Shown in pieces: positions 387 through 53,831 of a stretch of 64,000 nt of DNA. The notes beneath the pieces were generated by a model, which made no database searches, was not told the origin of the DNA, and worked only from the letters and a program-made list of their open reading frames with translations. The position numbers and the translations under genes were made by a program. How positions within the stretch are numbered: position 1 is the first letter of the stretch; the number at the start of each line of letters is the position of its first letter. Source of the DNA: Escherichia phage 348Ecol098PP. Where the stretch lies: sequence record OR062947.1; one strand, given 5' to 3'.

Positions 387-416
387 GTTTACAACCAAGG
401 ATGGTTGGAGTATAAT
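387..416 (+). promoter_or_regulatory. early-type promoter, exact copy of 42228-42257
   Basis: GTTTAC-N18-TATAAT; 29 nt upstream of ORF 445. Confidence 0.55.
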
Positions 417-39913: not shown

Positions 39914-40225
39914 ATGGTTTATGTATATGCAATAGTTTATCGAGATATGGAAGGATTTACTGTCCCGGTTCCACTTGATGAGCATCGTCCTGCAGTATTT
40001 TTTAGAAAGGATATTGCAGATAAAGTTTTCGATACTTTGAAAACACAGTATAAAACAGATTTAAAAATGGGAGTTCTAAGAATGGTCGAAACTCCGCGTA
40101 AGTTCTGGTTTAATAAGCTTGAAATGAAACACGTTAAACTAGATGCGGAGACGCAAAGATTGTATCAACGAATCCTGGACACAGGCCGTATTGTTAGTAT
40201 TCCAATTGCAGGGACTTTACGATGA
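39914..40225 (+). CDS. hypothetical protein (dda.1 position)
   Basis: ORF track; ATGA coupling to dda. Confidence 0.6.
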   Translation: MVYVYAIVYRDMEGFTVPVPLDEHRPAVFFRKDIADKVFDTLKTQYKTDLKMGVLRMVETPRKFWFNKLEMKHVKLDAETQRLYQRILDTGRIVSIPIAGTLR

Positions 40226-41535
40226 CATTTGATGATTTGACTGAAGGCCAGAAAAACGCCTTCAACGTTGTTATGAACGCTATTAAAGAAAAGAAACATC
40301 ACGTAACTATTAATGGGCCTGCTGGTACAGGTAAAACAACCCTTACTAGATTCATCGTTGAAGCCCTTATTTCTTCTGGAGAATCAGGTATTATTTTAGC
40401 AGCCCCTACACACGCCGCTAAAAAGGTTCTAAGCAAACTTGCGGGTCAAGAAGCATCGACTATTCATAGCATTCTTAAAATCAACCCAACTACATACGAA
40501 GAAAACGTATTGTTTGAACAGAAAAAGGTTCCCGACTTAGCCTTGTGCCGTGTACTGTTATTTGACGAAGCGTCAATGTGCGACCGTTCTCTGTTTAAAA
40601 TAATGTTAGCTAGTATCCCTAAATGGTGTACAGTAATTGGAATCGGCGACCGATGCCAGATTCGTCCGGTAGACCCAGGCGAATCAACTGCGTATCTAAG
40701 TCCTTTCTTCACTCACAAAGACTTCGTGCAATGCAATCTTACAGAAGTTAAACGTAGCAATGCACCAATTATTGATGTTGCGACTGATATTCGTAATGGC
40801 AAATGGATTTACGATAAAGTAGTTGATGGACACGGTGTTCACGGATATACAGACCTTAAATCGTATATGATGAACTATTTTAACGTCGTTAAAACTCCTG
40901 AAGACCTTTTCGAAAATCGAATGATGGCATTCACAAATAAGTCGGTGGACAAGTTAAATTCAATTATTCGCCGAAAACTTCTTGAAACAGAAAAACCATT
41001 TATTAAAGACGAAGTCATTGTTCTACAAGAGCCGTTTACTAAGACATATAAGCTAGATGGTAAAAATATGACCGAAATGCTTTTCAATAACGGCCAATTC
41101 GTTCGTATTCGAGATGCTGTAGAAACGTCTACATTCGTTAAAGCACGTGGTGTTTCAGGCGAATATATGATACGATACTGGAATCTTACAGTAGAAACAT
41201 ATGGGGATGATGAAGAATACATCCGCGAAGATATAAAGGTTATTTCTTCTGAAGAAGAGCTTTATAAATTCAATTTGTTTTTGGCTAAGACCGCAGAAAC
41301 ATACAAATTTTGGAATAAAGGTGGTAAAGCTCCATGGAGCGAATTCTGGGATGCTAAACGTATGTTCACTAAGGTGAAGGCGCTACCAGTATCAACCTTC
41401 CATAAGGCCCAGGGTATGTCTGTTGACACTGCCTTTGTTTATACACCGTGTATCCATTATGCCGATTCAGAATTAGCTAAACAGTTATTGTATGTCGGCA
41501 CAACTCGCGGTCGGTTTGACGTCCATTTTATTTGA
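40222..41535 (+). CDS. dda: DNA helicase Dda (SF1)
   Basis: 437 aa; Walker A GPAGTGKTT; synteny dda-dexA. Confidence 0.92.
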   Translation: MTFDDLTEGQKNAFNVVMNAIKEKKHHVTINGPAGTGKTTLTRFIVEALISSGESGIILAAPTHAAKKVLSKLAGQEASTIHSILKINPTTYEENVLFEQKKVPDLALCRVLLFDEASMCDRSLFKIMLASIPKWCTVIGIGDRCQIRPVDPGESTAYLSPFFTHKDFVQCNLTEVKRSNAPIIDVATDIRNGKWIYDKVVDGHGVHGYTDLKSYMMNYFNVVKTPEDLFENRMMAFTNKSVDKLNSIIRRKLLETEKPFIKDEVIVLQEPFTKTYKLDGKNMTEMLFNNGQFVRIRDAVETSTFVKARGVSGEYMIRYWNLTVETYGDDEEYIREDIKVISSEEELYKFNLFLAKTAETYKFWNKGGKAPWSEFWDAKRMFTKVKALPVSTFHKAQGMSVDTAFVYTPCIHYADSELAKQLLYVGTTRGRFDVHFI

Positions 41536-41544
41536 GAGAAAATT

Positions 41545-42222
41545 ATGAGCACTGATGTTATTATAGATTTTGAAACATTCGGCAATACATCAAAAGCGGC
41601 TGTTATTGACCTTGCGGTTATTGCATATAATTCCGACCCTGAAGTTGTTGAATCATTTGAAGAACTTGTTCAACGAGGTAAGCGAATTAAATTTAATTTA
41701 GCTTCTCAGAAAGGGAAGCGAGTTTTCGCTAAATCCACTATGAAATGGTGGAAAGAACAATCGGCTGACGCACGTAAAAACTTGACTCCGTCTGAAGACG
41801 ATGTCACTACGCTTGAAGGCATTAAAATCTTTTTAGACTATTGCCGAGCTAATAAAGTTGACCAATGGAAATCACAGATGTGGTGCCGTGGTATGAGCTT
41901 TGACTTCCCGATCTTAGTCGATTTGATTCGTGACCTTTATCGTGATGAAGGTGTTCTTGAACCAGATATTGATACTGATAAATTAGAACCGGTTAAATTC
42001 TGGGCTCAACGAGATATTCGTACTGCAATCGAAGCTTACTCGTTGACACGAGGATTAAGTATGTGTCCATTACCGATGGGTACGCTAAAAGGATTCGTTG
42101 CCCATGATAGTATTCATGATTGTGCTAAAGATATTTTGATGTTAAAATATGCTCAGCGTTATGCGCTTGGCCTTGAAGATGTCCCTGAGAATCCTGACCC
42201 GTTAAGTGTAAAACAGCGATAA
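41545..42222 (+). CDS. dexA: exonuclease A DexA (DEDD 3'-5' exonuclease)
   Basis: 225 aa; N-terminal IIDFETFG exo motif. Confidence 0.85.
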   Translation: MSTDVIIDFETFGNTSKAAVIDLAVIAYNSDPEVVESFEELVQRGKRIKFNLASQKGKRVFAKSTMKWWKEQSADARKNLTPSEDDVTTLEGIKIFLDYCRANKVDQWKSQMWCRGMSFDFPILVDLIRDLYRDEGVLEPDIDTDKLEPVKFWAQRDIRTAIEAYSLTRGLSMCPLPMGTLKGFVAHDSIHDCAKDILMLKYAQRYALGLEDVPENPDPLSVKQR

Positions 42223-42227
42223 AACCA

Positions 42228-42257
42228 GTTTACAACCAAGGATGGTTGGAGTATAAT
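42228..42257 (+). promoter_or_regulatory. early promoter, exact copy of the element at 387-416
   Basis: GTTTACAACCAAGGATGGTTGGAGTATAAT identical at both sites. Confidence 0.55.
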
Positions 42258-42288
42258 CTTTCTATCTTAACCAAACAGGAAAAACATT

Positions 42289-42783
42289 ATGAATATCAAT
42301 ACTATGGCTACTTACATCCTGAAAGACGAAAAACAAATCAACTGGTACGGTGCTTCAGTGCGAGCTTATGAAAAGTTTTGTGAAATTTTAGGTGCCACTC
42401 AAGGTAATAGTTTCACTATTGTTAACTTCATCAAACAAGTTGAAGGCCCTTGGTTATTCTTAGAAATTAAAAATTCATACGGTACAATTTCTACTACTGC
42501 CATTCCAAGCACCGACTTTGAACTGTTGATTGAAGAAGCACCTGTTAAAGATGGTCTCCACTTTGATATGGATATCGTTTGTATGTACGGTACTCTGATT
42601 AAGCCTATTGAGCCTACTGATTTGTTGTGTAAATATGTTTCAATTCGACGCCCATTCGATGGTCCGGTAAATGGATGGGTAACTGACCAGTGGATTGAAG
42701 ATGGGGTTGAACTTCTGAACGTTGTTCATGCCGGTGATTTTAGTGTGGTTCCACGTAGTGCAGTAGTTAATATTCTAAATTAA
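42289..42783 (+). CDS. hypothetical protein, member 1 of a three-gene tandem paralog family
   Basis: shared C-terminal motif GW/F-x-x-DQW-I/V-EDG-x-x-L-x-N-V/I-V. Confidence 0.7.
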   Translation: MNINTMATYILKDEKQINWYGASVRAYEKFCEILGATQGNSFTIVNFIKQVEGPWLFLEIKNSYGTISTTAIPSTDFELLIEEAPVKDGLHFDMDIVCMYGTLIKPIEPTDLLCKYVSIRRPFDGPVNGWVTDQWIEDGVELLNVVHAGDFSVVPRSAVVNILN

Positions 42784-42784
42784 T

Positions 42785-42815
42785 GTTGTACATCCAAGGA
42801 TGGATGGAGTATAAT
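42785..42815 (+). promoter_or_regulatory. early-type promoter, diverged copy of 42228-42257
   Basis: GTTGTACATCCAAGGATGGATGGAGTATAAT. Confidence 0.45.
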
Positions 42816-42845
42816 GAATTCAACTTAAACAAAGAGAGAAAAAAT

Positions 42846-43376
42846 ATGATTACTATTGGTGAAATCCTTCGTGTATCTCCTGCTTCTCGTTCTAAAGCTG
42901 CAGGTCGTCTGGTTGAAGTAGCAGGGCTTCGTACTAACGGCATGGGACGTGTTAAAGAAGTTAAAGTTCGAATCATCCCCAGTTTTGGCGGACAAGATGC
43001 CCAGTATGCTTACGTAAGTCCTAAATTCCTGGAAAAACATATACGAGTCCAATTTGCTTCAAGCGAAGAAGTTGCACCTGCACACTTTGCTTCTGTTGAA
43101 GAAGTTGAATCACGTGATGGATACGTATGTGAATCCACTGAGCCTAATGTACAGTTCAAATGGGCCCTTTGCAAAGGCGTTGAATTTATAACCGATAAAG
43201 AATTTGATTACATCGACGAATACGGTTATCCAAGCAAAACTGATACTATGTGCGGCTTCATCAGCGACCAATGGGTTGAAGATGGTAAAAAGCTATACAA
43301 TATTGTATTCTTAGGTGACTTCCGAGTTGTTGAAGAATCTGAAATCACTCGCTATGTGTCTCCACGTAAAGCTTAA
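42846..43376 (+). CDS. hypothetical protein, paralog family member 2
   Basis: ATG 42846 with AGAGAGAAAAAA RBS; C-terminal GFISDQWVEDGKKLYNIVF motif. Confidence 0.7.
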   Translation: MITIGEILRVSPASRSKAAGRLVEVAGLRTNGMGRVKEVKVRIIPSFGGQDAQYAYVSPKFLEKHIRVQFASSEEVAPAHFASVEEVESRDGYVCESTEPNVQFKWALCKGVEFITDKEFDYIDEYGYPSKTDTMCGFISDQWVEDGKKLYNIVFLGDFRVVEESEITRYVSPRKA

Positions 43377-43385
43377 GGAATTATT

Positions 43386-43805
43386 ATGAATATTGCAAAT
43401 CTCTCTATTGGTGATTATGTACACGTATCGGATGCTTCTCGCTCTAAAGTTGCTGGTAAGTTGGTCGAAGTTCTTTCTGTGAGTGATCCGGTTTTTGGAC
43501 GTAACGAAGTTAAAGTTAGTGACGCCGATGGTAACATTGGTTACGTTAAAAGCCAGTTCATCGAGCCAGAAGAACGCGCGTTCAAATGGAAACTGGGCAG
43601 ATCAGTTTTAGTTGTAAAAGACTACGAGTTCACCATTGCCGCTGCGACAGATGGAACACCGTGGACAACGAATCAAGTTGCTGGTTTTATTTCGGACCAA
43701 TGGGTAGAAGATGGTGTTAAGCTTTATAACATCGTTTTCGCTGGACAGTTCATGGTAGTTCCTGAGTTCCAAATCAAAAAATATTGTCCAGCATCTTTTG
43801 CATAA
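43386..43805 (+). CDS. hypothetical protein, paralog family member 3
   Basis: N-terminal SDASRSKVAGKLVEV and C-terminal GFISDQWVEDGVKLYNIVF shared with member 2. Confidence 0.7.
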   Translation: MNIANLSIGDYVHVSDASRSKVAGKLVEVLSVSDPVFGRNEVKVSDADGNIGYVKSQFIEPEERAFKWKLGRSVLVVKDYEFTIAAATDGTPWTTNQVAGFISDQWVEDGVKLYNIVFAGQFMVVPEFQIKKYCPASFA

Positions 43806-43809
43806 AGTT

Positions 43810-43838
43810 GTTTACTTCTCCTCTGGATTTGGTATTAT
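43810..43838 (+). promoter_or_regulatory. early-type promoter
   Basis: GTTTAC-N17-TATTAT. Confidence 0.45.
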
Positions 43839-43864
43839 ATCCATATCAACCAGAGGAGAATAAT

Positions 43865-44389
43865 ATGTTAGTTTACCGCGTAGAACGTAGTTTTTGTACT
43901 CAACGTGAATCATTACCAGGAATTGCTATCAAAGACGGTAAAGCCGTCAGAATTTGGGAAACCTCTTGGAATAAAGAACCTCGTTCGCCATACGGTTGGT
44001 CGGGCACCGACAACTCTGAAGAAACATGGGAGTTCCTTGATAAGCATGGAATACTCTCAGGTAACTTCTACCATCATGGCGACAACTATAATGTCCCTAA
44101 TCGTCCTACAGTAAATGAAGACAAACTCCTTGAACAAAATATCTTAAGATACTATAGAATTGATCACTCATTTGAATTGAGTGAAGATTGGGCCCAAGGG
44201 TTCTATTTTGGATTTGAAAGTGTTGACGCGGTTTATGCATGGTTTGATGACCAGGTGGATGTTGAACTCTTGAAAGCTAAAGGATACTACATCGCGGTCT
44301 ATGAAGCGCCTGATTTCATCCTCGGAAGTTGTCAATTAATGTTCAGACGTTCATTGGCAGAACAAGTTGATTTTATTTTGCTAAAATGA
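43865..44389 (+). CDS. hypothetical protein
   Basis: ATG 43865 with AGAGGAGAA RBS. Confidence 0.65.
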   Translation: MLVYRVERSFCTQRESLPGIAIKDGKAVRIWETSWNKEPRSPYGWSGTDNSEETWEFLDKHGILSGNFYHHGDNYNVPNRPTVNEDKLLEQNILRYYRIDHSFELSEDWAQGFYFGFESVDAVYAWFDDQVDVELLKAKGYYIAVYEAPDFILGSCQLMFRRSLAEQVDFILLK

Positions 44390-44446
44390 TGTACAACAAC
44401 TATGGTCTATGATACTATAGACCTATCAAAACAAGAGGAGAATATT

Positions 44447-44674
44447 ATGAAACGTCAAATCATTAAAAACGTAACTACTGATTCAAACATCGATGAGTTT
44501 GAAGATGTTCTGTTTAATCCTGATTTAGTTGTTGTACAGAAAAACTGGACTGAATTTTTATGCTACACTGAAGTGGTTTACGTTTACGAAAAACTAGGCG
44601 ATGAAATGCCTATCTATGGTATCTTCCGTGAAATCACTGAAAATGGTACAACTTATTGGAAGGAAACTTACTAA
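44447..44674 (+). CDS. hypothetical protein
   Basis: ATG 44447 with AGAGGAGAA RBS. Confidence 0.6.
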
Positions 44675-45087
44675 TGGCTAATAAATTCCGCGTTAACTCA
44701 TGGTACCAATTTATAGATAAACGTGCCCAAGAAGAGTTTATTAAAGACCACACTGATAATGGGATTTATGCACGACGTCTTGGCATGGAACCATTTAAAG
44801 TATTAGATGTTGACCATCTCGGACGTCCTACTAAAATTTTAACATCTACTGGCACGGTTGGATACGCAACAGGCGGTGATATCCTTGATGAAAACTTTAT
44901 CTGGCTCTCCACGAATGAAGCAGAGTTCTTTGACGAAGTTGAAAATCCATATCAAGCGTCCGAAGAGCAAGATTCTAGTGAACTTGACGAATTGTCTGAA
45001 TTTCCGGTGATGACGATTACTATCGAAAATAACGACCAGGCATGGTCTTTGTATCAAATGTTGAAAGCCCACTTTAAGGAACAATAA
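44674..45087 (+). CDS. hypothetical acidic protein
   Basis: TAATG coupling; ORF-track frame. Confidence 0.6.
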
Positions 45088-45266
45088 TGCCGTTATACGA
45101 CTATAAATGTCAATCTGAAGATTGTGGTCATGAATATGAAAAAATTAAAAGGATTTCTGAACGAGAAAACGATGTTTGCCCTGAATGTCATCGTCTGTCT
45201 ACTCGTCGGGTTTCTGCTCCTAAACATGTGAACGGTGGTTTTTACGACTTACTTAAGAAGGGTTAA
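45087..45266 (+). CDS. zinc-ribbon protein, FmdB-like (59 aa)
   Basis: [18 protein letters not shown]...CPECH pattern; manual translation. Confidence 0.55.
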   Translation: MPLYDYKCQSEDCGHEYEKIKRISERENDVCPECHRLSTRRVSAPKHVNGGFYDLLKKG

Positions 45267-45268
45267 TT

Positions 45269-45694
45269 ATGGCTTTTAAAGGTTTTGAAGTTGGTAAGAA
45301 ATATCGTATTATCAAAGGACAGGAAGATAATTTCTTGAGAATTCTTAATACGACTGGTAAGCGTCTTAATACTAATCTGCATACTACTTTATTGTCCAAA
45401 GATTTTATTGTGGAAGAGATGATTGGTTACGGCGTTTCGGTTATTGCTGTAGAAGCCGTAGGCGATTATGGCCGAACTATTCATAGTATGCAAGGTGATA
45501 TTCTGCTTTATGGTGCAGAATTTAAATTCTTTGAAGAAGTTCCGGAACCAGATACAGCTGTCGATTTCAAAAAAGGCTCTATAGAATTTGTTGATGGTTC
45601 GGTGATCGTATCAGGCGATGTGGTCATTACAGTTAAAAGTGAACAAGGGCGTTTAGCTGCAATTGATGCACTTCAGAAAATTAAATTTAAATAA
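45269..45694 (+). CDS. hypothetical protein
   Basis: ORF track; terminator immediately downstream. Confidence 0.65.
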   Translation: MAFKGFEVGKKYRIIKGQEDNFLRILNTTGKRLNTNLHTTLLSKDFIVEEMIGYGVSVIAVEAVGDYGRTIHSMQGDILLYGAEFKFFEEVPEPDTAVDFKKGSIEFVDGSVIVSGDVVITVKSEQGRLAAIDALQKIKFK

Positions 45695-45711
45695 GGGCTT
45701 CGGCCCTTTTT
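45695..45711 (+). terminator. rho-independent terminator (UUCG hairpin + T5)
   Basis: GGGC-TTCG-GCCC-TTTTT. Confidence 0.6.
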
Positions 45712-45735
45712 GCTTTAGATTTCGGATGATAGAAT
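45711..45735 (+). promoter_or_regulatory. middle (MotA-dependent) promoter candidate upstream of gene 39
   Basis: TGCTTTA, 12-nt spacer, TAGAAT; same architecture as 11230-11253. Confidence 0.5.
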
Positions 45736-45757
45736 ACCTTCATAACGAGGAGACAAC

Positions 45758-47575
45758 ATGATTAAAAATGAAATTAAGGTATTGTCAGATGTAGAACATA
45801 TTAAGAAACGTAGTGGTATGTATATTGGTTCTTCTGCTAAAGAAGCACATGAGCGTTTTTTGTTTGGTAAATATCAACAAGTTGAATATGTTCCTGGTCT
45901 GGTTAAATTAATCGATGAGATTATTGACAACTCGGTTGATGAAGCTATTCGTACATCATTTAAGTTTGCAAATAAAATTGATGTGCAAATTAAAAATAAT
46001 CAAGTTTCGGTGGAAGATAACGGACGTGGTATTCCTCAAGGTTTAGTTACCGACCAAACAGGTGAACAAATTCCTGGGCCTGTAGCAGCCTGGACTATTC
46101 CAAAGGCCGGTGGTAACTTTGGTGATGACTCTGAACGCAAGACTGGTGGTATGAACGGCGTCGGGAGTAGTTTAACTAATATCTTCTCTACGTTGTTTAC
46201 AGGCATCACGTCAGATGGCGAAAATGAAATCACTGTTAACTGTTCAAACGGAATGGAAAACAAATCATGGTCTTCTAAGAAATCTAAAGGTAAAGGCACT
46301 AAAGTAATCTTCACTCCTGATTTCACTTCATTTGAAGAGCATAATTTATCTCAAATTTATTTAGATATTACTTTAGACCGACTTCAAACATTGGCAGTCG
46401 TTTATCCTGATATCAAGTTCACATTTAATGGTAAAAAGGTTGATGGTAATTTTAAACGATTTGCTAAACAATTTGGTGAAGATAACATCATTCAAGAAAA
46501 TGATAAAGTCTCTATAGCATTCACAACATCACCAGATGGCTTCCGTCATTTAACTTATGTGAATAACATCCATACTAAAAATGGTGGCCATCATGTTGAA
46601 TGTGTAATGGATGATATCTGCGAACATCTTTTGCCCGGTATTAAAAAGAAATATAAGGGTATTGAAGTCACTAAAGCTCGTGTTAAAGAATGCCTCACAA
46701 TGTTGATGTTTATTAGAGACATGAGCAACATGCGTTTTGATTCTCAGACTAAAGAACGTTTAACGTCAACGTATGGTGATATTCGTAATCATATCCAATT
46801 AGATGCTAAGAAAATTGCTCAGGCACTTCTTAAAAACGAAGCCTTGATTATGCCTATTGTTGAAGCCGCATTAGCTCGTAAATTGGCGGCAGAAAAGGCT
46901 GCAGAAACTAAAGCAGCTAAAAAGGCAACTAAAGCTAAGGTTCATAAACATATTAAAGCTAACCAATGTGGTAAAGATGCAGATACGACATTGTTCTTAA
47001 CAGAAGGTGATTCTGCAATTGGTTATCTCATTGATGTTCGTGACCGTGAACTACACGGCGGATTCCCATTACGTGGTAAGGTGATGAATAGCTGGGGTAT
47101 GTCATATGCTGATATGATGAAGAACAAAGAGCTCTTTGATATCTGTGCTATCACGGGTCTTATTCTTGGTGAAAAGGCAGAGAATACGAACTATCGTAAT
47201 ATTGCAATTATGACCGATGCCGATCATGACGGTCTTGGAAGTATCTATCCGGCTTTGCTTGCTTTCTTTAGTAATTGGCCTGAATTGTTTGAACAAGGAC
47301 GTATTCGCTTTGTTAAAACACCTGTAATTATTGCACAAATTGGCAAAGCTCAAAAATGGTTTTATACTGTAGCTGAGTATGAAGAAGTTAAAGATACACT
47401 GCCTAAGCATAGTATTCGATACATCAAGGGATTAGGCTCCCTTGAAAAGTCAGAATATCGTGAAATGATTCAGAACCCTGTGTACGACGTAGTTAAACTT
47501 CCTGAAAATTGGAAAGAACTCTTTGAAATGTTGATGGGTGATGATTCAGAACTTCGTAAAGAATGGATGTCCTAA
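45758..47575 (+). CDS. 39: DNA topoisomerase II large subunit (GyrB-like), single 605-aa ORF corresponding to fused T4 39+60
   Basis: GHKL ATPase N-terminus; TOPRIM region in the same ORF; no interruption. Confidence 0.92.
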   Translation: MIKNEIKVLSDVEHIKKRSGMYIGSSAKEAHERFLFGKYQQVEYVPGLVKLIDEIIDNSVDEAIRTSFKFANKIDVQIKNNQVSVEDNGRGIPQGLVTDQTGEQIPGPVAAWTIPKAGGNFGDDSERKTGGMNGVGSSLTNIFSTLFTGITSDGENEITVNCSNGMENKSWSSKKSKGKGTKVIFTPDFTSFEEHNLSQIYLDITLDRLQTLAVVYPDIKFTFNGKKVDGNFKRFAKQFGEDNIIQENDKVSIAFTTSPDGFRHLTYVNNIHTKNGGHHVECVMDDICEHLLPGIKKKYKGIEVTKARVKECLTMLMFIRDMSNMRFDSQTKERLTSTYGDIRNHIQLDAKKIAQALLKNEALIMPIVEAALARKLAAEKAAETKAAKKATKAKVHKHIKANQCGKDADTTLFLTEGDSAIGYLIDVRDRELHGGFPLRGKVMNSWGMSYADMMKNKELFDICAITGLILGEKAENTNYRNIAIMTDADHDGLGSIYPALLAFFSNWPELFEQGRIRFVKTPVIIAQIGKAQKWFYTVAEYEEVKDTLPKHSIRYIKGLGSLEKSEYREMIQNPVYDVVKLPENWKELFEMLMGDDSELRKEWMS

Positions 47576-53598: not shown

Positions 53599-53799
53599 AT
53601 GGCTAAGCTTTTTAAAGATGTTGAAATTGGTGAAAAATTTGTCCTGAATAATGGTCAGCAGCTTATTCGTGTAGCTTCTATCGCCGGACAAACTCATAAC
53701 TGTATCGCCCCAACGTGTTGGACTCGATTCTTTATTGAAGATGACACTGAATGTTTAACTGTTGAAGAGCTTTTTGAACGTTCTGATATAGCCGAATAA
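53599..53799 (+). CDS. hypothetical protein
   Basis: ORF track; GAGGAACA RBS. Confidence 0.6.
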   Translation: MAKLFKDVEIGEKFVLNNGQQLIRVASIAGQTHNCIAPTCWTRFFIEDDTECLTVEELFERSDIAE

Positions 53800-53801
53800 A
53801 A

Positions 53802-53831
53802 TTGTACAAACTCTTGAGAGCAGAGTATAAT
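53802..53831 (+). promoter_or_regulatory. early-type promoter with hairpin-forming spacer (copy 2 of 34-bp element at 8957-8990)
   Basis: TTGTAC-N18-TATAAT; identical ACAAACTCTTGAGAGCAGAGTATAATGCTCTCAT. Confidence 0.45.

Follow-up and report, generated by a model that had tools for sequence, protein, structure and literature searches.

The window analysed here is a stretch of 64,000 nucleotides of DNA from Escherichia phage 348Ecol098PP (OR062947.1), which is 95-96% identical to Mosigvirus genomes, and the annotations of those genomes use the term MotB-like. The genes in the region of interest are arranged in the order dda, dexA, ORF1, ORF2, ORF3, a motB.2 homologue, cef, goF, 39.2, a goF-like gene and gp39. 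The three tandem ORFs are all on the plus strand: ORF1 (42289..42783, 164 aa), ORF2 (42846..43376, 176 aa) and ORF3 (43386..43805, 139 aa), and these coordinates agree with those of a first-pass annotation of the same DNA. The start of ORF2 is placed at the ATG at 42846, because a longer ORF from 42783 would include the promoter and because T4 MotB aligns from 42846. When the gene order was compared with those of T4 and RB69, the trio between dexA and cef was found to occupy the position of motB/motB.1 in T4.

All three ORFs pass the gathering threshold (25 bits) of the Pfam family PF17613 (MotB), with 34.7 bits for ORF1, 124.2 for ORF2 (E=5.8e-36) and 88.1 for ORF3 (E=7.8e-25), the match of ORF1 being limited to its C-terminal domain (CTD, residues 88-159). 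PHROG matches of the trio are 1671 and 2333, with a value of 6.4e-81 for ORF1 against phrog_2333, a family that also matches ORF 45269-45694 (0.0013). ORF1 is 38% identical to T4 MotB.1 over 136 columns (E=8e-26), including the N-terminal domain (NTD), which is not of the KOW type, and phage SQ17 has a protein 100% identical to ORF1. Identity to T4 MotB is 42% over the full length for ORF2 and 39% for ORF3. By similarity and position, the phage being of the RB69-like (Mosigvirus) T4 type, ORF1 and ORF2 are the orthologues of MotB.1 and MotB, and ORF3 is a short additional copy of MotB. The proposal of paralogous early genes in a host-takeover setting is thus borne out, all three belonging to the MotB family and lying between dexA and cef as in T4. 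As a discovery, however, the trio matters little: the finding is correct but ordinary, since earlier publications cover the family with its two-domain layout, the paralogy of MotB and MotB.1 and the additional copy carried by RB69-type phages. The shared CTD, the differing NTDs and the two motB genes and one motB.1 gene of RB69 were reported by Patterson-West et al. 2021 (PMC7827196).

Next to the trio lies ORF4 (43865-44389, plus strand, 174 aa, phrog_1106), a homologue of T4 motB.2 with 34% identity (E=6e-16), preceded by an early-type promoter (43811-43838, plus strand) whose sequence is similar to that of the T4 motB.2 promoter. ORF4 was considered as a fourth member of the family and rejected, having no significant similarity to ORF1-3.

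Promoters and Transcription Units

ORF1 is preceded by a promoter and leader (42229..42287, plus strand) of the early σ70 type, TTTACA-17-TATAAT at 42229-42257, which matches 11/12 positions of the consensus, and ORF2 by a second copy (42787..42845, plus strand), TGTACA-17-TATAAT at 42787-42815, which matches 10/12. The two form a 57-nt promoter/leader repeat (42231-42287 and 42789-42845) of 77% identity, in which the 22-nt core CCAAGGATGGWTGGAGTATAAT is matched at 21 of 22 positions, and none of 100 shuffles reached 3 matches. A third promoter cassette (388..416, plus strand, TTTACA-17-TATAAT) with the identical spacer and an exact 22-nt match lies 42 kb from the trio, in front of an early ORF that is unrelated (445-1392, phrog_1435, function unknown). 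The repeat exceeds the common consensus, because the spacers of the other early-type promoters in the window are unrelated. Copy 1 carries a promoter annotation in phage NBG1 and is kept in NBG1, APCEc01 and RB69; copy 2 is also kept in relatives, with a weakened -10 element in some.

The spacer of copy 1 can form a 6-bp hairpin, CAACCA-AGGA-TGGTTG (-5.5 kcal/mol, z=-2.4), and that of copy 2 the hairpin CATCCA-AGGA-TGGATG (-5.3 kcal/mol, z=-2.75), the two differing by a compensatory change from A:T to T:A; the hairpin of the cassette at 388-416 has z=-3.6. A search of 41500-46000 against Rfam at E up to 1 yielded just two hits, both below threshold and attributable to chance, and therefore no hidden RNA element in that region.

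The first-pass annotation had credited the genes with promoter copies of their own. This is true of ORF1 and ORF2, whose promoters are near-identical, but not of ORF3, which has none. As ORF3 starts 9 nt after ORF2, it is probably co-transcribed with it. ORF1 would be transcribed from its own promoter, and ORF2 and ORF3 as a single unit from the second promoter copy.

Ancient Duplication and Purifying Selection

The C-terminal motif common to the three ORFs is real and far above chance, with pairwise E values from 6e-10 to 2e-27: ORF1 and ORF3 share 18/30 identical residues (E=4e-11), ORF1 and ORF2 share 16/36 (E=6e-10), and ORF2 and ORF3 are 37% identical over 170 columns (E=2e-27). An alignment with insignificant similarity had been named in advance as the result that would speak against the family, and the similarity proved significant. 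In addition, profile-profile comparison of the MotB.1 type with the MotB type gave a probability of 98.8% (E=6.7e-17, 52 columns). The CTD core G[FWY][IV][ST]DQW[IV]E[DE]Gx[KE]L[YL]N[IV]V is found in ORF1, ORF2 and ORF3, and its D, W, E, G, L, N and V do not vary anywhere in the MotB and MotB.1 alignments. The N-terminal SRSK-AG-LVEV motif noticed earlier is likewise present in ORF2 (SPASRSKAAGRLVEV) and ORF3 (SDASRSKVAGKLVEV); the corresponding motif of MotB proper, (V)S..SRSKxAGxxVEV, together with a KOW-like NTD, characterizes ORF2 and ORF3 but not ORF1, which falls into the MotB.1 category.

The description of the family as locally amplified and diversifying, on the other hand, is not supported. 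Synonymous sites between the paralogue cores are saturated (pS 0.83-0.91), so that the duplicates must be old; recent amplification, or gene conversion between the copies, was therefore rejected. The dN/dS values of orthologues are 0.07-0.31 overall (ORF1 0.16-0.20, ORF3 0.07-0.12) and therefore indicate purifying selection without positive diversification. Moreover, the three-gene layout is kept in all four further Mosigvirus genomes that were inspected one gene at a time. In a neighbour-joining tree of MotB copies the ORF3-type proteins form a clade of their own, in a tree too rough to date the duplication. The three early proteins thus appear, from these comparisons, to be anciently duplicated.

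It might be supposed that ORF1 and/or ORF3 are decaying duplicates which have no function of their own and are kept by linkage to motB, as the ORF3 copy is absent from T4, motB.1 is frameshifted in the reference genomes of both T4 (NC_000866) and RB69 (NC_004928), and MotB.1 is dispensable, T4 delta-motB.1 growing normally (PMC12152347). However, neither ORF1 nor ORF3 is disrupted here or in the Mosigvirus genomes that were examined, their dN/dS values are low, tblastn with ORF3 found 207 phage records at ≥80% identity, and the intact 143-aa MotB.1 of the T4 type is present on 256 contigs. Decay is consequently highly improbable and appears already largely refuted by purifying selection.

A second possibility is a strict anti-defence family, in which each paralogue neutralizes a different dedicated defence system and the copy number tracks the defence repertoire of the host. 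The copy number does vary by genus: among sampled records, CTD-core matches per record are usually three and sometimes two in Mosigvirus-type phages, mostly two in other T4-like phages of E. coli and Shigella, and one in Klebsiella phages. Synonymous divergence at the locus (dS 0.2-0.5) is higher than in the flanking genes (0.04-0.09), and the orthologues of ORF3, which are 82-98% identical in Mosigvirus phages, include one of 88.5% in the Tequatrovirus RB3, so that alleles have been exchanged across genera. The region is also one of accessory, dispensable early genes (PMC7827196). All this would suit an anti-defence family, but selection at the locus is purifying rather than diversifying, and the sole member studied acts on DNA and H-NS generally and on no specific defence system (PMC6070864, PMC7827196). 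Furthermore, no anti-defence phenotype of the MotB family was found in this analysis or in the literature searched, and we consider this explanation very unlikely. Of the earlier suggestion of a host-interaction or anti-defence family, the host-interaction part has literature support for ORF2 by way of T4 MotB, while strict anti-defence is left without support.

Domain Architecture and Fold

AlphaFold2 (AF2) models give two confident β domains joined by a disordered linker (mean pLDDT 79.3 for ORF1 and 76.5 for ORF2). The NTD of ORF1 (residues 1-82) is modelled as an acidic β domain with strands at 8-11, 42-49, 55-61, 67-73 and 80-82 and one helix at 26-37, which is compatible with an LSm-like fold; it is followed by a disordered linker bearing the motif DMDIVCMYGTLIKP and by a MotB-type C-terminal barrel at residues ~108-164. 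In ORF2, the NTD (residues 1-64) is KOW/SH3-like and basic (net +6, pI 10.4), like the NTD of T4 MotB and alone among the trio, the linker (65-100) is acidic (-6) and disordered (pLDDT <50) with an 11-aa tandem duplication encoded by a 33-nt tandem repeat, and the C-terminal barrel (101-176) is acidic. ORF3 has the same two domains as ORF2 without the long linker, and its NTD is not basic (net -2). The NTD of the MotB-proper type is modelled by AF2 as a 4-strand β domain with pLDDT 84-89, and the CTDs of all three ORFs are acidic.

The shared C-terminal domain of ~55-75 residues models as a Tudor/SH3-like barrel and, in the structural comparison, not as an OB-fold; the published prediction for the MotB CTD is a cold-shock-like OB-fold (PMC7827196). 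Fold matches included the KOW domains of NusG and Spt5, domain I of EF-P and eIF5A and the C-terminal Tudor domains of UvrD and PcrA. A fold search of BFVD returned mainly uncharacterised phage proteins, the best being MotB-like proteins of T4-type phages, and no PDB sequence was matched, even at E=10, when ORF2 or the alignments of MotB and of the CTD served as queries. A CTD profile search gave 28 clusters among 1.84 billion representatives, of which 26 are small proteins (43-251 aa), several of these bearing source names that identify them as T4-like phage proteins. The two long matches (2069 and 934 aa), in which several short stretches were hit, belong to repeat-rich surface proteins and were discarded as spurious. 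The MotB.1 NTD has been described as an LSm-like, five-stranded bent antiparallel sheet related to GoF and Frd.2 (PMC12152347), and when the MotB.1 alignment was compared by hhalign with the window's two goF-like proteins, the results were weak, with probabilities of 12.5% (E=0.0023) and 0.2%.

These folds raise the question of whether RNA or the transcription machinery, and not the nucleoid, is what the proteins act on. RNA and RNA polymerase partners are common ligands of KOW and LSm-like barrels, RNA polymerase is the ligand of the Tudor-like barrels in UvrD, PcrA and Mfd, and the original meaning of the name MotB is "modifier of transcription". The fold matches listed above, including the RNA polymerase-binding Tudor domains of UvrD and PcrA, point in this direction, as does the relationship of the LSm-like MotB.1 NTD to GoF, whose D25Y mutant stabilizes an mRNA (PMC12152347). 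Nevertheless, early, middle and late phage RNA was essentially unchanged in a T4 motB knockdown (PMC6070864), an mRNA reporter assay showed no clear effect of MotB.1 (PMC12152347), and the fold class of small barrels is a poor predictor of the ligand, so that action on RNA or transcription seems quite unlikely.

Proposed Function

T4 MotB is toxic in E. coli, and its binding to DNA is not sequence-specific; H-NS and StpA co-purify with it, and part of the H-NS regulon is derepressed by it (PMC6070864, PMC7827196); its function is also stated in the part of PMC13096335 that cites Son et al. 2021. Published work regards either MotB domain as a possible DNA binder. Direct contact between MotB and H-NS in the absence of DNA could not be demonstrated (PMC7827196), which weakens the notion of a CTD that binds H-NS.

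Taken as a whole, the locus is likely to be a Mosigvirus motB.1 - motB - second motB cluster of ancient duplicates, each protein consisting of two small β-barrel domains on a flexible linker. The NTD of ORF2 and ORF3 would be a KOW-like barrel and that of ORF1 a different barrel, LSm-like according to the literature. Judging from T4 MotB, ORF2 would be made early and abundantly, would coat the DNA of host and phage alike, whatever its sequence, presumably through its basic N-terminal barrel, would alter how H-NS and StpA sit on the DNA and derepress some H-NS-silenced genes, and may modestly raise the burst size. More tentatively, the acidic C-terminal barrel may be a module for protein contact or self-association and not a DNA binder, and ORF1 and ORF3, which have no basic NTD, might make the same contact with a different nucleic-acid cargo or with none.

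A bolder version, which we think unlikely, takes the CTD to be a Tudor-like docking or self-association module instead of a DNA-binding OB-fold. Through it the paralogues would meet a single shared partner, be it one another or one host protein, and each would bring its own N-terminal cargo: ORF2 a basic, DNA-coating KOW barrel, ORF3 a neutral KOW barrel and ORF1 an LSm-like one. In that case ORF3 and ORF1 would not act alone but would serve to tune or cap the filaments that MotB forms on the nucleoid, which would explain the slight phenotype of single deletions.

The points that are new here are the Tudor/SH3-like module, the basic NTD (as expected of a protein that coats DNA) in ORF2 only, the narrow distribution, the occurrence of natural chimeras and of exchange between genera, and the frameshifts in the reference motB.1 genes. 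The first two of these, together with the shortened T4 reference MotB.1, could redirect experiments on a poorly understood group of T4 early proteins, abundant ones with a bearing on H-NS silencing.

Comparison with Known Systems

The small β-barrels of the Tudor, chromo-barrel, PWWP and KOW types resemble the trio in fold only and have no sequence relationship with it. T7 gp5.5 and T4 Arn are comparable with MotB in the proposed outcome, that is, H-NS silencing is relieved or altered (PMC7827196), but they bind H-NS directly whereas MotB is seen with H-NS only when DNA is present, and they are related to MotB neither in sequence nor in fold. The promoter copies recall the PeSL (promoter-early stem-loop) cassettes (Arbiol et al. 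2010, PMC2839356; Comeau et al. 2014, PMC4122927), which are likewise repeated, near-identical early promoters with a small stem-loop in a plastic region and in which promoter-gene units shift position. A comparable shift is seen with motB.2 and its promoter, a unit that precedes motB.1 in T4 and follows the motB copies in the window. Unlike in PeSL, however, the hairpin in the window is just 6 bp, lies inside the -35/-10 spacer and is not followed by a terminator-like T run.

RB69, of the same genus, has the same order, dexA - motB.1 - motB - second motB - motB.2 - cef, and the same pair of promoter cassettes. PMC7827196, citing its Table S6, gives this cluster as two motB genes, one motB.1 gene and a 29-aa peptide. 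Two 1-nt insertions disrupt motB.1 in the RB69 reference, hence the separate 29-aa ORF, whereas the gene in the window is intact. T4 MotB (NP_049626; PF17613; PHROG 1671) shares with ORF2 and ORF3 the KOW-like NTD with SRSK-AG-LVEV, the CTD core, the dexA-cef position and an early promoter, but T4 has one motB against two here, the linker of ORF2 contains a distinct acidic, tandemly duplicated segment, and ORF3 differs in its missing long linker and non-basic NTD. T4 MotB.1 (NP_049627) resembles ORF1 in its MotB-type CTD (as in PMC7827196) and in an NTD of β-strands with one helix, but does not have the linker motif of ORF1. Furthermore, the T4 reference MotB.1 (119 aa) is cut within the DQWIEDG core by a 1-nt insertion, while ORF1 is intact, and the 143-aa form is also found in a resequenced T4. 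The reference MotB.1 used for experimental constructs ends 24 residues before the intact form.

Family identity and paralogy

The three tandem genes of this T4-type phage of the genus Mosigvirus constitute a gene family which is already described, in an arrangement which is already annotated. ORF1 (42289-42783, 164 aa), ORF2 (42846-43376, 176 aa) and ORF3 (43386-43805, 139 aa), all on the plus strand, exceed the Pfam gathering threshold of PF17613 "motB". ORF1 is the orthologue of T4 MotB.1 (38% identity over 136 columns), ORF2 is that of T4 MotB (42% identity), and ORF3, 39% identical to T4 MotB, is a further copy of that gene. ORF4 (43865-44389, plus strand), considered as a further relative, is unrelated to all three and is a motB.2 homologue. 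Patterson-West et al. (2021, PMC7827196) described that MotB and MotB.1 have a conserved C-terminal domain (CTD) in common and differ in the N-terminal domain, suggested duplication of one as the origin of the other, and reported both genes in 40 other phages and, in RB69, two motB, one motB.1 and a 29-aa peptide. In addition, public annotations of close relatives already read "MotB-like transcriptional regulator". Useful by-products of the present analysis are the fold reassignment of the CTD (modelled as a Tudor/SH3-like barrel, the published fold being an OB-fold), the uneven charge of the three copies and the motB.1 frameshifts in reference genomes.

The first-pass annotation proposed that the three genes are early, host-directed paralogues, and this part of its interpretation was right. 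The C-terminal motif attributed to all of them, with the core G[FWY][IV][ST]DQW[IV]EDGx[KE]L[YL]N[IV]V, is real: ORF1 matches ORF3 at 18/30 residues (E=4e-11) and ORF2 at 16/36 (E=6e-10). For ORF2 and ORF3 the identity is 37% along their full length (E=2e-27), and their alignment takes in the N-terminal SxASRSKxAGxLVEV stretch claimed for these two. Furthermore, the MotB.1-type and MotB-type profiles match with 98.8% probability (E=6.7e-17, 52 columns), and the match reaches upstream into the first strand of the domain (LLCKYVSIRRP versus ALCKGVEFITD), past which the MotB lineage has an insertion, 13 residues long in ORF2. All 55 aligned MotB-type sequences, including ORF2 and ORF3 (last codons 43371-43373 and 43800-43802), end with alanine (...PRKA, ...SFA, ...ALYA, ...IHFA), and MotB.1-type proteins have no C-terminal alanine; this residue could serve in degradation or recognition, or be needed for the structure.

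Gene neighbourhood

The neighbourhood corresponds to the T4 early region from dda to gene 39, and its gene order is found again in RB69. Upstream of ORF1 are dda (40222-41535) and dexA (41545-42222), and ORF4 is followed by cef, goF, a 39.2-type zinc ribbon gene, a second goF-like gene and topoisomerase gene 39, all on the plus strand. Between 42200 and 43900 the window shares 95-96% identity with Escherichia phages 308Ecol101PP, ST0, LNA2 and others. A second paralogue pair lies nearby, namely goF (44674-45087, 74% identity to T4 GoF) and a 141-aa gene (45269-45694) sitting where T4 has 39.1; both match phrog_622, and the latter also weakly matches the MotB.1 family phrog_2333. Several neighbouring early genes thus seem to consist of small beta-barrel modules of a few types.

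Domain layout and function

In the AlphaFold2 models the domains are predicted confidently and the linkers as disordered. ORF2 (mean pLDDT 76.5) has strands at residues 1-63 and 101-176 with pLDDT below 50 at 66-100, and ORF1 (mean pLDDT 79.3) has strands and one helix at 1-82, a disordered segment at 87-106 and a five-stranded domain at 112-164. The N-terminal barrel of ORF2 is strongly basic (net +6, pI 10.4), whereas the linker (-6) and the C-terminal barrel (-4) of this protein are acidic. ORF3 has both barrels, the N-terminal one being non-basic (-2), without the long linker, and ORF1 is acidic along its entire length.

T4 MotB is toxic in E. coli, binds unmodified and glucosyl-hydroxymethylcytosine DNA tightly and without sequence specificity, co-purifies with H-NS and StpA only when DNA is present, alters the H-NS footprint, raises expression of 75 host genes, about one third of which belong to the H-NS regulon, and increases burst size two-fold (PMC6070864; PMC7827196). 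Nucleoid compaction by T4 MotB is credited to Son et al. 2021, as cited in PMC13096335. By analogy, ORF2 would have the same role, and because of its charge the N-terminal barrel is the likelier DNA-binding surface. Since the N-terminal barrel of ORF3 is non-basic and its long linker is missing, and since ORF1 is acidic, neither is expected to share the DNA-coating activity of MotB. For the conserved acidic C-terminal barrel, a role in protein contact or self-association may be more likely. Under laboratory conditions T4 does not require MotB.1, which showed no clear effect when assayed with an mRNA reporter (PMC12152347).

The linkers are themselves variable. Within the acidic linker of ORF2, 33 nt are duplicated in tandem (43050-43107, residues ~69-88; FASSEEVAPAH/FASVEEVESRD). 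MotB length in close relatives ranges from 151 to 176 aa depending on which linker segments of this kind are present or absent, one of them being a VEEVESxDGYVCES module that JS98-type MotB also has. The disordered linker of ORF1 (42553-42600, residues ~89-104) carries Dx(D)[IV]xxMYxxx[IV]KP[LI], which T4 MotB.1 lacks and which, in other proteins with a MotB.1-type CTD, is N-terminal or behind a KOW-like domain; it resembles a short linear motif that can change its place.

Distribution, age and exchange

A tblastn search with the 34-residue core found 1818 places in 921 phage records. Among the records sampled, those whose core is nearly identical to the ORF3 type (Mosigvirus-type and a few others, e.g., RB3) usually have three places and sometimes two, the other T4-like phages of E. 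coli, Shigella and Yersinia mostly two, and Klebsiella T4-like phages one. A profile of the three CTDs matched only 28 of 1.84 billion cluster representatives. Small proteins of 43-251 aa make up 26 of these clusters, several being source-named T4-like phage proteins and the rest unnamed metagenomic ones; the two long matches are spurious repeat proteins. The module is thus narrowly confined, as far as named members show to enterobacterial T4-like phages.

The family had been taken for a locally amplified and diversifying one, which is wrong as regards recent amplification and diversification. Within the 28-codon conserved core, 83-91% of synonymous sites differ between paralogues, so neither duplication nor gene conversion has been recent. 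In comparison with the orthologues of NBG1, APCEc01 and RB3, dN/dS is 0.16-0.20 for ORF1, 0.19-0.31 for ORF2 and 0.07-0.12 for ORF3, that is, the genes are under purifying selection and not positive diversification. Synonymous divergence reaches 0.2-0.5 in the trio but 0.04-0.09 in the flanking dexA and ORF4. In Tequatrovirus RB3 (NC_025419.1, 2018-2920), which keeps the T4 gene order (motB.2, motB.1, motB), an ORF3 orthologue of 88.5% identity adjoins a Mosigvirus-type motB, suggesting that a two-gene unit was exchanged across genera. The raised divergence and the RB3 alleles point to exchange between phages rather than fast evolution. Moreover, the metagenomic protein P0105 (163 aa) has the N-terminal half of a T4-type MotB and the C-terminal half of an ORF3-type protein, with the junction at FKWKL, as would be expected if tandem copies had recombined unequally. 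In a second metagenomic protein, P0250 (43 aa), the initial 15 residues of MotB.2 are fused at (Y)EDG to the final 28 of MotB.1. Both are natural chimeras and resemble deletions that arose when adjacent genes of the cluster recombined.

motB.1 in reference genomes

In the T4 reference (NC_000866.4, 4219-4651, minus strand), one extra G within the conserved DQWIEDG core truncates motB.1 to 119 aa (...DQWIGRWR*), and leaves the remaining part of the domain as a separate 29-aa ORF behind it. Resequenced T4 (OL964735.1, 1498-1929) has an intact 143-aa motB.1, that base being the sole difference, and intact T4-type MotB.1 (P0123) is on 256 contigs. The published amber-mutant construct followed NC_000866.4 coordinates, with MotB.1 given as 13.8 kDa (PMC12152347). 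Compared with the window, the RB69 reference (NC_004928.1, 3877-4373, minus strand) carries two insertions of 1 nt each close to the same core motif, which result in a 132-aa product and a separately annotated 29-aa ORF, listed as "category 3" (PMC7827196). Judging from these sequences, motB.1 is broken in two classic laboratory reference genomes and intact in field isolates; sequencing error or laboratory-passage loss could be the cause.

Promoter cassettes

The near-identical promoter sequence claimed for the first two genes is real: ORF1 and ORF2 share a 57-nt direct repeat (77% identity) spanning promoter and leader. ORF3, in contrast, starts 9 nt past the ORF2 end and lacks a promoter of its own. 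The 22-nt repeat core occurs three times in the window, a count reached by no shuffle. The spacers of the remaining early-type promoters are unrelated, so the cassette is a true repeat beyond shared consensus. Both cassettes fit the T4 early-promoter type (TTTACA or TGTACA, 17 nt, TATAAT), contain a 6-bp hairpin within the spacer differing by one compensatory change (CAACCA/TGGTTG versus CATCCA/TGGATG), and are kept as a pair in NBG1, APCEc01 and RB69. A third copy, identical to the ORF1 promoter cassette (AGTTTACAACCAAGGATGGTTGGAGTATAAT), is found 42 kb off at 388-416, before a gene unrelated to the trio (445-1392, 315 aa, phrog_1435); large deletions or rearrangements could arise through such direct repeats.

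A further early-type promoter at 53790-53830 (TTGTAC...agagTATAATgctctc) is similar to the T4 motB promoter (GTTTACaaactcttgggaccagagTATAATggtccc), the stem around the -10 being preserved by two-sided changes (gagagc/gctctc versus gggacc/ggtccc). The ORF4 promoter is similar to that of T4 motB.2, which, however, is on the opposite side of the motB genes; therefore, the promoter-gene unit of motB.2 seems to have moved, and this would fit the promoter-mediated modular shuffling described in T4-type phages (PMC2839356, PMC4122927).
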